This document shows, one piece after another, positions 22,413 to 30,551 of a stretch of 64,000 nucleotides of DNA (position 1 is its first letter; every line of letters begins with the position of its first letter). This DNA is from an uncultured Alphaproteobacteria bacterium (GTDB lineage Bacteria; Pseudomonadota; Alphaproteobacteria; RF32; CAG-239): contig CAJGCO010000005.1 of NCBI GenBank assembly GCA_904501925.1, forward strand, positions 16,219 to 80,218, read 5' to 3'. Position numbers and translations under genes: made by a program. A model generated the notes under the pieces. That model made no database searches and had not been told where the DNA came from. It saw only the letters and a list, made by a program, of their open reading frames with translations.

Positions 22413-22571
22413 TAATAATTCTAATAATTGAATACTCGTTCTTTCATTTCGTCGCATTTTTTTTCAAATGCTTCGATTTTTTTTGTTTGAAGTTTTTTTT
22501 CAATCCTTCTGCTGATGTAAACAAACAGCAACGTGCCACTAAGGAACATTTCCAGAAGAGTTATTGTTTCC

Positions 22572-22640
22572 ATAAAAAAAATATAAAAATTGATTATACG
22601 TCGTTTAATGTAGTCTAAAAATCTTTTTTGTCAACATTTT
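22572..22640. repeat. R2-right partial repeat (~80% identical to 25812-25880)
   Basis: Alignment: aaaaaaatataaaaattgRttaWacgtYgtttaatRtagtctaaaaa. It overlaps the 3' end of the C26 peptidase gene. Confidence 0.7.
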
Positions 22641-23577
22641 TTTGTGCAATTTTATCAGATATTTTTTGAGGATGTTTTTTCTTGTATTCTTTAGCAAGAA
22701 TTGCAACGTGATTGTATAAACTTTGCATTTGAATATCTCCTTTGGCTGCAAGGTCTTCCGGGTGTCCTTGAATGCATAAAATACCTTCATCACTATTACC
22801 CCATATTTCTGGGATATTATCATCATTAGATATTGCGTAAATATCCATTTTAATTAATGGTTTTTCTTGTACATAATCTTGAATAGAAGAGTGAACCATT
22901 GATTGATTATGGCGAGAATTTATTTTTATTGTGGTAGTATCTTTAGAGATTTTCATTATATCAAAAATTGGTGTATTGGGTATTAGTTTTATATCGTGCA
23001 TAATTACTTGAGATGGTTGTGGTTTATGTGCTGCAGGATGAGGGATTTCTTCCTTTAAACTGCGATACATTTTCATTTTACCTAAGATGGCACCAATCAT
23101 TTGAGCACCAGCACAAATTCCTAGCATTGGTTTTTTGTTTTTATGAGCGTTCATTATTGCGCAATGATATGCGAAATAACGTTTGTTTTCATTAGAGGGT
23201 AAATTTTTATTATCAATGAAAAAATTATCAGGATTATCAAATGCTCCGCCAGGTAAAATAATACCATGACAATTTTTGCATTGTTCATATGTGTTTTCAA
23301 AGTCTAAAAATTTGATTTTAGCACCAGTTTTTAATGTTGTTTCTAAATATGGTTCAGAAATTGTATAAAATTCTTCTTTGGTAATACTTGATTTGTCTTG
23401 CCCAAGGAGAAAACCTAAAGTTGGAGCTGTGCTAGATGTATATGCATTAAAGCCTTTAGGAAGTCTAATGTCTGCTACTATATTTTGTTTTTTTAGTTCA
23501 GCGATGGTTTGTTTAGAAATTCCATAGCTTTCGAATTCATCGATATATTCTAGGTATACTATTTTTGTTTTTATCAT
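22615..23577 (-). CDS. Class I glutamine amidotransferase-like / peptidase C26 (gamma-glutamyl hydrolase, PuuD-like) family protein
   Basis: Nucleophile elbow PMLGICAGAQM and a C-terminal GHPE His-Glu motif. The start is taken at MIKTKIV; the ORF track has it 13 codons upstream. Confidence 0.65.
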   Translation of the reverse strand: MIKTKIVYLEYIDEFESYGISKQTIAELKKQNIVADIRLPKGFNAYTSSTAPTLGFLLGQDKSSITKEEFYTISEPYLETTLKTGAKIKFLDFENTYEQCKNCHGIILPGGAFDNPDNFFIDNKNLPSNENKRYFAYHCAIMNAHKNKKPMLGICAGAQMIGAILGKMKMYRSLKEEIPHPAAHKPQPSQVIMHDIKLIPNTPIFDIMKISKDTTTIKINSRHNQSMVHSSIQDYVQEKPLIKMDIYAISNDDNIPEIWGNSDEGILCIQGHPEDLAAKGDIQMQSLYNHVAILAKEYKKKHPQKISDKIAQKNVDKKDF

Positions 23578-23734
23578 TGTAATCTCCTTTGTAGAGGTAC
23601 ATATGTATAGTATCACTGAAATGGGGTGTTGTCAATAAAAACTAGATAGAGTAAAAGAGATGGATATTGCAAGTCAACTATGAGTAAAAAAATGATATCA
23701 TATGTCGAGGTATGGATATATGAAAGGATAGGAT

Positions 23735-24034
23735 ATGAGCGAAAATATTACAAAAGAAATTGAACAAATCAATACTGAAACATCTGAAAGTATTGATAAA
23801 TTTTTGTATCGGATTATAAATTTATTTTACATTATCAGCCCACTTAAGACGGCAAAACCATTCGTTTTTATCTTTTTTCCAAGTTCCTTCAAGTTTTGCA
23901 CATTCTTCTTTGATTATAACATTTTCATAACAAATTCCTGTATCACTATTTTTAATATGCTAAATTTACAACTTTTTCGCGCAATATATCAAGCTTGTTT
24001 TGAGAGGTTTGAGGTGTTTCAGGTTTTGCTTTAG
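23735..24034 (+). CDS. Possible small protein (doubtful), overlapping the opposite-strand ORF 23952-24203
   Basis: It is preceded by the same tatatgaaaggata-N-ATG Shine-Dalgarno context found before both toxin genes. The sequence becomes F-rich low complexity after ~35 aa. Confidence 0.25.
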   Translation: MSENITKEIEQINTETSESIDKFLYRIINLFYIISPLKTAKPFVFIFFPSSFKFCTFFFDYNIFITNSCITIFNMLNLQLFRAIYQACFERFEVFQVLL

Positions 24035-24203
24035 GTCTTTCAACACCTTGCTCTTCTCGCAATTTCTTGATAATACTTAATTGGTTTGCCATATCTAGCT
24101 TTTTCAAAGCCATTCTTTGTTTATCTGTTAAAGTTAATCCATCTAGCGAAAAATCTTCATCTTCCGGAAGTAAAGAGTTTGATTGCTTCGTGTTTGACTT
24201 CAA
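23952..24203 (-). CDS. Hypothetical small charged protein (83 aa)
   Basis: ORF with a non-biased, charged composition, immediately downstream of immunity-like gene 1. Confidence 0.4.
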   Translation of the reverse strand: MKSNTKQSNSLLPEDEDFSLDGLTLTDKQRMALKKLDMANQLSIIKKLREEQGVERPKAKPETPQTSQNKLDILREKVVNLAY

Positions 24204-24216
24204 TCTATCATTATTG

Positions 24217-24272
24217 CTACATTAATTGTTATTTAAGAGCAACAAGTTCCTCTTAAATAACAATTAATGTAG
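24217..24272. repeat. Perfect 23-bp inverted repeat (ctacattaattgttatttaagag / ctcttaaataacaattaatgtag) with a 10-nt spacer
   Basis: Read directly from the sequence. The right arm overlaps the last 13 codons and stop of the 125-aa ORF. Confidence 0.9.
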
Positions 24273-24610
24273 TTATAAACAATAACTAAAAAAATCAATG
24301 ACAAAATTAATAAAGCTTTTGTTTTGTATTTTTTTAATAACAAAAAAAATGAAAAAATAGTAAATATTAGTGGAAATACAATATTGATAATAATATTTAA
24401 ATATTCTAACAAGGAAGGTTTTTCTATACTGAAAAAAGATGGTGTATAGTTAATGTGCCAGTATTCATAATCAAAAATAAGATAATATAACTCAAATAAA
24501 GAAAATATTAGTATTGATAGATTAATAACCATAAACAAGGTATATATAGACCAAAATAAAAATTTTTTGAATAACTGAATAAATTTATCTTTTGACATTA
24601 ATATTTCCAA
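24233..24610 (-). CDS. Small multi-TM membrane protein, candidate immunity protein for toxin candidate 1
   Basis: 125 aa with 3-4 hydrophobic helices, lying 55 nt downstream of the toxin-like gene on the same strand. Confidence 0.5.
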   Translation of the reverse strand: MEILMSKDKFIQLFKKFLFWSIYTLFMVINLSILIFSLFELYYLIFDYEYWHINYTPSFFSIEKPSLLEYLNIIINIVFPLIFTIFSFFLLLKKYKTKALLILSLIFLVIVYNYINCYLRGTCCS

Positions 24611-29080: not shown

Positions 29081-29098
29081 ATTATCTAATCTTGTTAT

Positions 29099-29728
29099 CT
29101 ATAAATTCCAAGGGCGTAAATTATACATTTTTCTACCTCTATATCCAAAAGATGAAATTGTATTTCGTCCTAAACTATTCCATAGAGTTATTATTCTATC
29201 AACAGTCGGATTGTCAAGAGAATTGTATATCTGCTTAACCAAAAGAGTACCTAATTCAATATTTTCATTGGGATTATTTGTGTCATAATATTTTCCATTG
29301 AAATTTCCCCACATATCTCCTCTAATATTCATAGGCATTTGGCTTTTAGATACTTCCATATAATCAGCTAAAGCATTCAAACCCAAATAATGCCCGCATG
29401 CATTTTCTAAAAATACAATAGTTTTAATAAGATTTGTATCGACATTATGGAGTGATGAATAGTATTCTATAGGTTGATTATATTTTTTTACAGCATAATT
29501 TCCAATTGGTGTAAAACACCACCATTTCATACTATCGTCTTCATTAGGATTATCATCTAAATGTAAATATAAAGGTTGTCCACTCAAAATTGCCTCCATT
29601 CTTTGAGTCGCATTTAAGTTGTTATCATAATTTTTATGTTGTTTTTTATAGAACTTATTTAATTTATTTAAAACTCTATCTTGAATTTCTGTTAATTCAT
29701 CATTTTGAAGTAAAAAATTGTATACCAT
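29099..29728 (-). CDS. Candidate toxin 2 (209 aa); possibly a lysozyme-like / lytic-transglycosylase-like peptidoglycan hydrolase, but the family is uncertain
   Basis: FLENACGHYLGLNAL loosely resembles the SLT E...G..GL(MQ) motif. There is no signal peptide and the RBS context is the same as toxin 1. The C-terminal tail is duplicated as an orphan at 27399-27572. Confidence 0.4.
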   Translation of the reverse strand: MVYNFLLQNDELTEIQDRVLNKLNKFYKKQHKNYDNNLNATQRMEAILSGQPLYLHLDDNPNEDDSMKWWCFTPIGNYAVKKYNQPIEYYSSLHNVDTNLIKTIVFLENACGHYLGLNALADYMEVSKSQMPMNIRGDMWGNFNGKYYDTNNPNENIELGTLLVKQIYNSLDNPTVDRIITLWNSLGRNTISSFGYRGRKMYNLRPWNL

Positions 29729-29938
29729 TTATATATCCTTTCATATAAAAAAAAGAGTTACAACCATTTAGTCATAACTCTTTGGTTAAATTTAAAACAA
29801 AAAAACTCTTCTTTTGATAGAAGAGCTTTATTGCATAGAATTTTAAGCATAAAAATCCATGCTAATACAATTCATACCAACTGCTGACACACTTGTCAAT
29901 AGGTTGAGAGAATTTTAATTAAATATTTTTATTATATG
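29729..29938 (-). promoter_or_regulatory. R1 leader copy 2: promoter (-35 ttgaca 29894-29899, 17 nt, -10 tatgaat 29870-29876), terminator T1 (29797-29829, stem ctcttct/agaagag + U7), terminator T2 (29746-29780, 8-bp stem + U7), and an AAAGGA SD before the ATG at 29728
   Basis: Alignment with 25557-25760; the stems are conserved with compensatory changes. Confidence 0.65.
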
Positions 29939-30142
29939 AATTGTTTATATTTCTGTCTTAGTTCTTTTAGTTTGTCCCAATCAAATGTGGTAGAGAATAT
30001 TAGGGTGTAAAGAGCAACCGTCATTAAAAATCGTGTTTGGTTTCAAAAAATTAAAAATCCCGTCGGCAACGATTCTTGGGGTAGGATAAAAAAGATTAAA
30101 AATGCATTTGGGTAAATGTCTTAAATGTCTTGTAAATCCGTT

Positions 30143-30200
30143 TGGGGAAAATCGTAAAAAATCTTATAAAAGTGAATAAAGCAAAATGTGTTCTACGTCT
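30143..30200. repeat. R2-left partial repeat
   Basis: ggggaaaatcgtaaaaaatcttataaaa matches 25767-25795. Confidence 0.65.
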
Positions 30201-30278
30201 TAAGTGATGTGTAGGTGTGACGTGTAGGTTAAAATGGGCTTAAAAAAAGGCATAAAAAAAGCCCTTAATTTAAAGGCT

Positions 30279-30477
30279 GGGGAGAGAAATGGAGAGTGCT
30301 CCGGGAATGACCTCTCTTCGTTCGGTCGCACTGGCGCTCATTGGCAAAGCCAACCGCGATACTTCCGTCTCGCTTTCGCTTGTAGTCGAACCCGCTGTTG
30401 CGTGTTCGCTTCCCTTGATTATGTTTGAAAAAAAGTGATGATGTATTTCAATATACTTTGATGGGAGGGGAGAGAAA
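30279..30477. repeat. Direct repeat B abutting the tRNA-Gly 3' end. It contains a degenerate second copy of the tRNA-3'-end motif (ggggagagaaatggagagtgctccgggaatga, 30279-30310) and the flank repeat (30363-30430).
   Basis: Sequence comparison with 28095-28227 and with the tRNA 3' end. Confidence 0.7.
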
Positions 30478-30551
30478 TGGAGCAGGCGACGGGAATCGAA
30501 CCCGCATGAAAAGCTTGGGAAGCTCTCATTCTACCATTGAATTACGCCTGC
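30478..30551 (-). tRNA. tRNA-Gly (anticodon CCC), 74 nt with encoded CCA
   Basis: Reverse complement GCAGGCGTAATTCAATGGTAGAATGAGAGCTTCCCAAGCTTTTCATGCGGGTTCGATTCCCGTCGCCTGCTCCA folds as a cloverleaf. It closely matches bacterial tRNA-Gly(CCC), with anticodon loop uuCCCaa. Confidence 0.93.

Follow-up and report, generated by a model that had tools for sequence, protein, structure and literature searches.

The 64,000 nucleotides (nt) considered here stem from an uncultured alphaproteobacterium (GTDB lineage RF32, CAG-239; contig CAJGCO010000005.1 of assembly GCA_904501925.1, positions 16,219 to 80,218) and are referred to in their full 64-kb length as the window. Between a conserved amidotransferase gene and the only tRNA gene of the locus lie two genes for toxin-like proteins, toxin1 and toxin2, each of which directly precedes a gene for a small membrane protein, imm1 and imm2, respectively, along with fragments of further genes and several duplications that include copies of the 3' end of tRNA-Gly(CCC) (Table 1). 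The GC content of the locus amounts to 19-32% and is slightly below that of the flanks. All coordinates are those of the whole window; L-numbers (L001-L037) denote the contigs or loci used for comparison and P-numbers homologous proteins. The locus probably represents a polymorphic peptidoglycan-toxin/immunity array situated beside a conventional tRNA-Gly(CCC) integration hotspot, and it is not the new cassette system that a preliminary description of this DNA had proposed.

Table 1. Features of the toxin/immunity locus and its borders, in window coordinates
Feature	Position	Strand	Remarks
Bidirectional terminator hairpin where holB and the amidotransferase gene converge	22375..22408		Stem of 15 pairs with a T-run behind it on either strand
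Repeat D4, copy 1: amidotransferase 3' end and downstream sequence	22575..22653		84% identical copy at 25815-25895
Peptidase C26/class-I glutamine amidotransferase-like gene	22615..23616	-	PF07722, 1.1e-14; conserved flank
Remnant of a Cys-rich membrane protein, last ~38 aa	23834..23947	-	tblastn with residues 95-132 of the 135-aa open reading frame of L007, 82%, E 5e-17
83-aa open reading frame, internal fragment of a third family toxin	23952..24203	-	Linker only, without N-terminal domain and without toxin domain
imm1, 125 aa (121 aa as called in L001)	24233..24610	-	Three predicted membrane spans (hydropathy); directly downstream of toxin1
toxin1, 296 aa	24666..25556	-	N-terminal family domain (~1-65), linker, weak peptidoglycan-binding-like region, Tlde1/YkuD domain
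toxin1 promoter/leader module (R1/R2 of the preliminary description)	25557..25804	-	TTGAC box; terminator-like hairpins 25651-25626 and 25606-25578
Repeat D4, copy 2: 81-nt duplicate of the amidotransferase 3' end	25815..25895		Read as a rearrangement scar
226-aa protein, strain-specific cargo	25916..26596	+	Five predicted membrane spans; no family match; no match in any related locus
204-aa soluble Cys-rich protein, strain-specific cargo	26677..27291	-	No match in Pfam, NCBIfam, PHROGs or PADLOC
Orphan 3' fragment of toxin2, last ~57 codons	27387..27572	+	85% to 29099-29284; translation NEHIELGTLLVKQIYNSLDNPTVDRIITLWNSLG...; within the inverted duplication
Orphan imm2 pseudogene	27591..28094	+	Frameshifted (frame 0 to 2 to 0); 48-52% to imm2 homologues across frames (tblastn)
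Third tRNA-end copy (core 28199-28228), preceded by tail and distal 57-67 nt of body	28099..28228	+	
DUF6626 remnant, last 26 codons	28522..28599	-	tblastn 73%, E 2e-6
imm2, 165 aa	28583..29080	-	Multi-pass membrane protein (three spans by hydropathy), conserved Cys-containing loop; directly downstream of toxin2
toxin2, 209 aa	29099..29728	-	Short-form family N-terminus and lysozyme-like (GH23/lytic transglycosylase-like) domain
toxin2 promoter/leader module, homologous to that of toxin1	29729..29944	-	Terminator-like hairpins 29829-29802 and 29783-29752
Native tRNA flank	29980..30278		Beside the tRNA-end core in L008, L015-L018 and L021; terminator-like hairpin 30278-30260 (minus)
188-nt unit	30279..30466	+	Variant core 30279-30308, GC-rich structured body 30309-30424, tail 30425-30466; absent or doubled in sister strains
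tRNA-Gly(CCC) and 11-nt trailer	30467..30551	-	Core 30467-30496, from T-loop to CCA plus trailer

The two toxin genes are connected by the homology between 25479-25767 and 29643-29943 (73% identity), which comprises their upstream regions and continues into the first ~26 codons. In the preliminary description the toxins had been considered unrelated and the repeats R1 and R2 had been taken for cassette junctions. Instead, R1/R2 are made up of promoter, leader and N-terminal coding sequence, and toxin1 and toxin2 share all three, including an N-terminal domain of ~65 aa. An alignment of the regions upstream of five toxin genes from two genomes (two in the window and three in L002) revealed a common TTGAC box, a shared leader of ~150 nt with two tandem terminator-like hairpins, and a common ribosome-binding site (RBS) and start region. 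The tandem hairpins differ compensatorily among the five genes, and this double structure suggests that expression could be controlled by antitermination or attenuation; a search of the leader against Rfam gave no match. In the leaders at 25578-25651 and 29752-29829 (minus strand), as well as in those upstream of 139-1119, 8062 and 9330 in L002, the T-run of the second hairpin abuts the RBS. Moreover, the leaders of two toxin genes in L002 (1373-1500 and ~7900-8000) carry an extra repeated insert of ~90-190 nt (GGTCATCCTCGAGG...GTTAGTCAC...), which looks like a small dispersed repeat or a miniature inverted-repeat transposable element (MITE).

The constant front end of the proteins is best seen in L002, where a GH108 protein and a 317-aa protein have ~100 nearly identical N-terminal residues and diverge thereafter; toxin1 possesses the first ~65 of these residues and toxin2 a shorter version. 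An exhaustive HMMER search of 1.84 billion representative proteins with a profile of this N-terminal domain retrieved only 64 clusters, in which the match is always N-terminal. Among the longer members, the recognisable C-termini are GH108 (7), VgrG3-like_C (2), Pesticin (2), PG_binding_3 and PG_binding_1, while most have no recognisable C-terminal domain. The N-terminal domain itself matches no entry in Pfam or NCBIfam, and a profile search of PDB yielded only an insignificant HP0242-like match; Rhs, FHA, LXG, PAAR, MIX or other recognised secretion or trafficking domains were likewise not detected in it with Pfam and NCBIfam. A double-glycine leader was considered for the N-terminus and dropped, as inspection revealed no GG motif. 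On account of the common promoter, leader and N-terminal domain, toxin1 and toxin2 are, as judged from their sequences, members of one polymorphic family with variable C-terminal domains.

Regarding these C-terminal domains, toxin1 matches the Pfam families PF10908 (Tlde1_dom; 5.7e-11, 43.3 bits, cut-off 30.1) and PF03734 (YkuD; 5.7e-07, 30.6 bits, cut-off 23.4), while its peptidoglycan-binding-like region stays below the Pfam thresholds. Its H-x9-C motif (HGGANLGSSGC; HGGANLGSSGCI) has the same His-Cys spacing as H121 and C131 of Tlde1a, whose residues H121, H129 and C131 served as the reference for motif comparison (PMC9638812). A comparison of toxin1 with PDB sequences gave no match. For toxin2, 19 homologues were found in gut and rumen metagenomes and in metagenome-assembled genomes (MAGs) labelled Alphaproteobacteria, and Glu108, the candidate catalytic residue, is invariant in 16 aligned sequences. 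Two of the homologues, P0009 and P0015, carry a precomputed PF01464 match, and the toxin2 profile finds MltC in PDB marginally (E 0.06). An AlphaFold2 model of toxin2 (pLDDT 84.5) has as its best Foldseek neighbours exclusively MltE, MltC, MltF or g-type lysozymes, with probabilities of up to 1.0. Because of the Tlde1/YkuD match of toxin1 on the one hand and the invariant Glu and lytic-transglycosylase-like model of toxin2 on the other, both toxins are predicted to attack peptidoglycan.

The genes downstream of the toxins are co-inherited with the respective toxin domain. Homologues of imm2 (33-79% identity) directly follow toxin2 homologues in L002, L004, L026 and L028, and the pairing was seen in five loci with otherwise unrelated neighbourhoods; imm1 follows toxin1 in L001 and L035. 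The small membrane-protein genes that had been noticed downstream of the toxin-like genes are thereby kept in their pairing across loci. In L035-L037, a toxin1 homologue has lost its Tlde1 domain and kept the N-terminal part together with imm1, and the L035 gene is to all appearance a disarmed cassette that retains immunity. The underlying internal deletion (L035:9803-10762, also present in L036 and L037) lies at an ankyrin-repeat locus and spares the promoter, the N-terminal part and imm1. We regard imm1, for which no family match was obtained in Pfam, NCBIfam or PHROGs, as a candidate immunity protein. A homologue of imm2 also stands alone, beside the amidotransferase gene of L007 and L009. 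As a separate observation, three tandem genes for small acyl-carrier-protein-like proteins (PP-binding, 69-83 aa) are situated directly upstream of the toxin2 homologue of L002 (6855-7764) and likewise in L003.

In addition to the intact pairs, the locus holds orphan copies and pseudogenes, as had been described, at 27387-28094 and 23834-24203, to which the stand-alone imm2 homologue of L007 can be added. The former belong to an inverted duplication of 696 nt (27387-28081 versus 28590-29284, 85%). Within the latter, the 83-aa open reading frame (ORF) contains a motif, SNSLLPEDEDFSLDGLTLTDKQR, that matches P0150 and P0143 just past their N-terminal domain, and the membrane-protein remnant has an intact counterpart (135 aa) upstream of the imm2 homologue in L007. 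At the left edge, a start region resembling the RBS/start module of the toxins (TATATGAAAGGATAGGATATG followed by MSENITKEIEQIN...; 23717-23826, plus strand) faces right; L006, L008 and L010 retain it as far as the position where the strains diverge, and it could be what is left of a toxin gene that was displaced.

Close relatives were reached via homologues of holB and the contigs that carry them, and sister strains via an identical RplL protein. The preliminary description had placed the start of the island at 22413, directly behind holB. Since the amidotransferase gene is conserved beside holB in relatives, the variable region, judged by these alignments, begins at ~23.7 kb and extends over ~23.7-30.5 kb instead of 22.4-30.5 kb: the gene adjoins holB in L006-L014 (92-93% and 77% nucleotide identity), the adjacency is kept in relatives with 95% and 88% identical holB, and nucleotide identity at the level of 92-93% (or 77%) extends to ~23.64-23.83 kb and then ends. 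Beyond the amidotransferase gene, content differs even where the flanks of the strains agree at 92-93%, in line with the accessory island that had been suspected. L006 and L008 continue with a gene for a 313-aa membrane protein and L007 and L009 with the stand-alone imm2 homologue and the 135-aa membrane protein; in L008, only two membrane-protein genes separate the amidotransferase gene from the tRNA flank. Repeat D4 is present in relatives only as the copy at the amidotransferase 3' end. Where the holB of a relative is 74-76% identical, the genes that follow it are entirely different, and no deeper 'empty site' can be defined; among the contigs compared, none spans the full interval in an 'empty' strain, and a search of GTDB representative genomes with peptide patterns found no close holB relatives. 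In L031-L033 (74% identical holB), the genes after holB are two unannotated ORFs (~2 kb) and then tatD and a metallo-beta-lactamase-fold gene, the window counterparts of which are located 20 kb away (42971-44536). The whole 20-kb block that holds the island (22.4-42.9 kb) thus appears to sit at a rearrangement point.

At the opposite border, the 3' end of tRNA-Gly(CCC) (30478-30551, minus strand), the single tRNA recognised at the locus by ARAGORN and Rfam, points toward the variable region. A string of 28 nt (GGGAGAGAAATGGAGCAGGCGACGGGAA), which comprises the last 17 nt of the tRNA and the 11-nt trailer, occurs in two exact copies (28200-28227 and 30468-30495), and 0/100 shuffles yielded any match. 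The 30-nt core (GGGGAGAGAAATGGAGCAGGCGACGGGAAT) is found at 30467-30496, with one mismatch at 28199-28228 and with five mismatches at 30279-30308; a fourth copy is absent from the 64 kb even at up to 10 mismatches. The flank beside the core is duplicated as well (28099-28165 versus 30368-30434, 93%; in a longer alignment including the tRNA end, 28099-28227 versus 30368-30495, 81%), and a further pair of repeats connects 25741-25864 with 30121-30248 (68%). Copies of the repeats of the locus were not found elsewhere in the window. The duplicated tRNA end with its degenerate third copy, the adjacent duplicated flank of ~65 bp and the three repeat families confined to the region, all of which had been reported before, are accordingly real. 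The same applies to the lack of an integrase, transposase or phage gene: the tested ORFs of the island matched no such family in Pfam, NCBIfam or PHROGs, and the integrase of a relative found no match in the window by tblastn. PADLOC recognised no defence system in the island.

Sister strains with identical RplL or 92-98% identical flanks differ in the number of units inserted next to the tRNA. L015, L016 and L018 have none, and their tRNA core is directly followed by a conserved flank of ~180-300 nt (corresponding to 29980-30278). One unit is present in the window and in L021 (188 nt, with variant core, body and long tail) as well as in L017 and L024 (151 nt, of a second type). L008 contains two, with both types in tandem and a third core, followed by unrelated AT-rich DNA. 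The copy at 28099-28228 is 95% identical to the unit beside the tRNA in L008 and L021. A search of the JGI metagenomes for the 30-nt core pattern returned only L015. In L016, the RplL of which is identical, a truncated ORF with the catalytic region of tyrosine recombinases (PF00589, 1.2e-11; phrog_1, 1.3e-20; positions 1-738) and a DUF6626 gene (800-1219) lie directly beside the tRNA-Gly flank, the DUF6626 gene being placed between the integrase and the tRNA, at a distance of ~700 bp between the latter two. DUF6626 may be an accessory gene of the integrase element; in the window, its remnant sits in the middle of the inverted duplication and adjoins the third core. Repeats that run from the T-loop to the CCA end and beyond are typical of many tRNA-targeted integrative elements. 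As a sister strain harbours a tyrosine integrase at the same tRNA, the repeats need no new mechanism, and the pattern fits an ordinary integration hotspot with decayed elements.

The structured body of ~115 nt inside the units requires separate treatment. Besides the window (30309-30424; partial copy 28099-28165), copies were located in L008 (5280-5394 and 5468-5585), L017 (1256-1373), L021 (306-420) and L034 (16925-17051), and at the sites examined the body always lies between a tRNA gene and a duplicate of that gene's own T-loop-to-CCA end. L034, a MAG with 76% identical holB, has its homologue beside tRNA-Ala(GGC) (75% over 92 nt, nhmmer E 1e-25); its junction falls on the same T-loop position, and it is bracketed by a repeat of ~50 nt of the tRNA-Ala 3' end and terminator. 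The consensus fold of six body copies comprises 35 pairs with 96.7% of cells paired, compared with 27-37% in slid controls, and five pairs are changed on both sides, a number reached in 2/500 shuffles; as only three lineages contribute and one alignment served both to derive and to assess the structure, this covariation lends modest support. When the unit was folded as RNA, neither strand had a significant z-score, and Rfam recognised only the tRNA itself and not the body. Furthermore, body patterns were found neither in GTDB representatives nor, for three patterns, in IMG/VR, and the unit had no match among INPHARED phages. Two candidate identities were dropped: a fragment of a two-piece tmRNA, for which ARAGORN and Rfam gave no match, and a MITE, for which no terminal inverted repeats were seen by inspection. 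The body could be an element reduced to att alone, a small mobile element of tRNA T-loops, or else an RNA with which the tRNA 3' end is shared.

For toxicity, immunity, the role of the N-terminal domain, the recombination route and the delivery machine, we infer the following scheme. The toxins are made in the cytoplasm and have no signal peptide, and the N-terminal domain of ~65 aa would serve as a handle for export or trafficking. Behind this handle, interchangeable C-terminal enzymes would be mounted, namely a Tlde1-type L,D-transpeptidase/carboxypeptidase in toxin1 and a GH23-like muramidase or lytic transglycosylase in toxin2, and the GH108, VgrG3-C-like and pesticin-like lysozyme domains of relatives would follow the same scheme. 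The multi-pass inner-membrane protein encoded downstream would block the toxin in the periplasm of the producer. A new C-terminal domain, together with its immunity gene, would be swapped in via homologous recombination through the shared 5' module, and this swapping would leave behind 5'-truncated toxin fragments and orphan or decayed immunity genes such as those at 23.83-24.20 kb and 27.39-28.09 kb. The 30-bp direct repeats would be att-type scars of tyrosine-recombinase elements, with the integrase lost in the window and the DUF6626 remnant left. For delivery, the genome could encode a contact-dependent secretion system outside the window, or the toxins could be released and taken up as colicin M or pesticin are.

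Several observations weigh against this picture of a peptidoglycan-toxin/immunity array beside a conventional hotspot. Toxin1 has a Ser at the position equivalent to H129, the second His of the (S/T)HGC motif. Toxin2 reaches 13 bits with PF01464 (SLT), under the Pfam cut-off of 21.3, and its Foldseek matches have E-values of only ~1e-2 and TM-scores of 0.44-0.50. Both immunity candidates are integral to the membrane, in contrast to the Tldi or Tgi types, which are soluble proteins of the periplasm. No gene for a secretion system, an adaptor, VgrG, PAAR, Rhs or CdiB was detected in the window, and none of these secretion genes occurs within 10 kb of the homologues in relatives; type VI secretion system (T6SS) families are absent from window ORFs of at least 110 aa. 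Moreover, the left edge near 23.7 kb lacks a tRNA-end copy, and site-specific entry of the left 4.5 kb is not demonstrable; finally, the compensatory base changes in the body are unexpected for a plain att arm. The preliminary description had spoken of a polymorphic toxin/immunity array lacking the context of Rhs, contact-dependent inhibition (CDI) or T6SS; the array behaviour and the absence of these systems from the 64 kb hold, and the undescribed cassette system is not supported.

Concerning the delivery step only, the toxins might be diffusible bacteriocins like colicin M or pesticin, in which the N-terminal domain and linker would provide for receptor binding and import, and which could do without a secretion system of their own. 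Small proteins of 200-350 aa that consist of an N-terminal domain, a low-complexity linker and a periplasm-acting enzyme would suit this role, as would the pesticin-type C-termini of the family, the membrane-anchored immunity candidates and the lack of secretion genes near any family member examined. However, motifs resembling a TonB box or a Tol box were not recognised, the vicinity holds no gene for lysis or release, and VgrG3-C-like and Tlde1 domains are best known from T6SS, which leaves this mode of delivery doubtful, if conceivable. Somewhat less likely still is a bolder combination of ideas, according to which the N-terminal domain would mark an undescribed route by which peptidoglycan-degrading toxins of gut Alphaproteobacteria are exported or taken up, with expression perhaps gated by the double-terminator leader, and the body would be a cargo-less element targeting T-loops, or an RNA gene borrowing the tRNA 3' end, and in either case more than a passive scar.

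The model of the preliminary description, i.e. a new integrase-less cassette system with site-specific insertion at the tRNA-Gly 3' end and with R1/R2 and the 29-bp repeat as borders, could draw on the position of toxin2-imm2 between the tRNA-end copies 28199-28228 and 30279-30308, on the absence of an integrase from the island and on the variability of the locus among strains. Against this, the sequence from toxin2 to the core at 30279 is the native tRNA flank in all strains, and toxin2-imm2 lies distal to this flank and not at the att junction, while no copy of the core accompanies toxin1 or the left 4.5 kb. Owing to these two facts, the cassette off the att junction and the left edge without a core, the array cannot be explained as serial tRNA insertions; of the successive site-specific insertions formerly proposed, the tRNA-end repeats themselves stand, the copies of which are restricted to the right-hand 2.3 kb with none at the left boundary. 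In addition, homologous cassettes have as neighbours gyrA and acyl-carrier-protein genes in L002/L003, other housekeeping genes in L004, L026 and L028, and ankyrin-repeat genes in L035, and these loci in relatives have neither tRNA-Gly nor core nor body. Hence, the spread of the cassettes is not tied to the tRNA-Gly att site. Together with the nature of R1/R2 as promoter, leader and N-terminal coding sequence, and with the classical integrase at the same site in L016, this makes the model highly improbable.

An equally slim chance is given to the idea that the gene pairs are no interbacterial toxins but lysis cassettes of phage type with endolysin and holin, or that they remain from a prophage or gene-transfer agent which decayed at the tRNA. 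This reading could draw on the arrangement itself, in which small multi-pass membrane proteins come after peptidoglycan hydrolases, on the presence of GH108, phage-lysozyme and pesticin-type domains in the family, on the tRNA as an integration site and on two faecal contigs ('Bacteriophage sp.', unannotated) to which the Tlde1 domain of toxin1 is weakly similar. However, no holin or endolysin family of PHROGs matches the toxins or immunity proteins, toxin2 is unmatched by tblastn in 50,697 phage records, and phage structural or replication genes are missing nearby. Moreover, several enzyme classes stand behind one N-terminal domain and leader, L,D-transpeptidases are no endolysin class, and orphan 3' fragments and stand-alone immunity genes typify toxin/immunity arms races. 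Least credible of all are housekeeping enzymes of cell-wall remodelling with membrane partners, whose variability and repeats would be neutral rearrangement debris, since the cell-envelope genes around (PBP5, RlpA, lipopolysaccharide (LPS) genes) and the many segmental duplications are outweighed by presence/absence differences between near-identical strains, the confinement of the family to 64 clusters, the exchanged C-terminal domains, the orphan fragments and the stand-alone partner genes.

The rest of the window is occupied by housekeeping genes, among them those for pyruvate:ferredoxin oxidoreductase, rhamnose and LPS, as well as mutS, uvrB, mraY, ftsW and others. To the right of the tRNA (31001-33216), rplJ-rplL is not followed by rpoB/rpoC; two other genes come next, one for a protein of 106 aa (three predicted membrane spans) and one for an ankyrin-repeat protein, an order that is conserved in the sister strains L016 and L018-L020. 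A PIF1/RecD-like helicase gene (38610-39950, minus strand) stands alone among the housekeeping genes and matches several helicase models of PADLOC candidate systems. ORFs without a Pfam match are located at 55354-58704 (minus, 1116 aa), 3894-5309 (plus, 471 aa), 50508-51764 (minus, 418 aa) and 33274-34395 (minus, 373 aa).

If the reading as a peptidoglycan-toxin/immunity array is true, uncultured low-GC Alphaproteobacteria of the animal gut would have their own family of interbacterial cell-wall toxins, with a common modular front end that has no name in current domain libraries. The tRNA-end repeats are ordinary, and only the small structured element between them merits a separate look. The N-terminal domain would then help to trace the remaining arsenal and the machine that delivers it, and many gene pairs of gut metagenomes now labelled 'hypothetical' could be annotated with it. 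The loci break metagenome assemblies, as most family matches are contig-end fragments.

With regard to known systems, integron cassettes likewise consist of small promoter-proximal gene units arrayed near a recombination site, and the body is structured; unlike in integrons, IntI, attI and attC are absent here, each cassette brings a promoter and leader of its own, and the repeats consist of tRNA 3' ends. With tRNA-targeted islands, the locus has in common the direct repeats starting in the T-loop, tandem copies of variable number and an integrase that is present in one strain and lost in others; it differs in that the units are gene-free, span 150-190 bp and contain a structured element of ~115 nt, and in that no distal att is found at the far edge. 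Integrase-less att-flanked remnants have been described as cis-mobilizable elements and in connection with accretion at att sites (PMC5704250). Colicin M and pesticin resemble the toxins in their small size and modular build, in a C-terminal enzyme directed at peptidoglycan and in an immunity protein associated with the membrane, and pesticin-like C-termini recur in the family, whereas a TonB box, a receptor-binding domain or a lysis gene was not recognised here and the arrays are chromosomal. T6SS effector pairs (Tlde1/Tldi1 of Salmonella, Tge/Tgi and VgrG3/TsiV3; PMC9638812) are comparable in the Tlde1-type and lysozyme-like domains, the VgrG3-C-like domains of relatives, the immunity candidate directly downstream and the periplasmic target predicted here. 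Unlike these pairs, the locus has no T6SS gene in the 64 kb or near homologues, its N-terminal domain is not of the MIX, FIX, PAAR or VgrG kind, and its immunity candidates are multi-pass membrane proteins instead of soluble periplasmic ones. Further comparison systems are the orphan C-terminal toxin/immunity arrays of Rhs and CDI loci and the sequential effector displacement in Vibrio cholerae (PMC3967940, PMC5361080). Compared with Rhs/CDI polymorphic loci, the constant part is limited to ~65 aa and the leader, without a Rhs/YD, FHA or LXG body, and every recognisable toxin domain targets peptidoglycan. What is shared with them is a constant 5' part joined to variable C-terminal toxins and a cognate immunity gene, 5'-truncated orphan toxin fragments accompanied by immunity genes, and a strain-dependent set of modules. 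Taken together, the locus is assigned a polymorphic-toxin architecture because exchangeable toxin domains with cognate immunity genes stand behind a front that stays constant, and because orphan modules accompany them.

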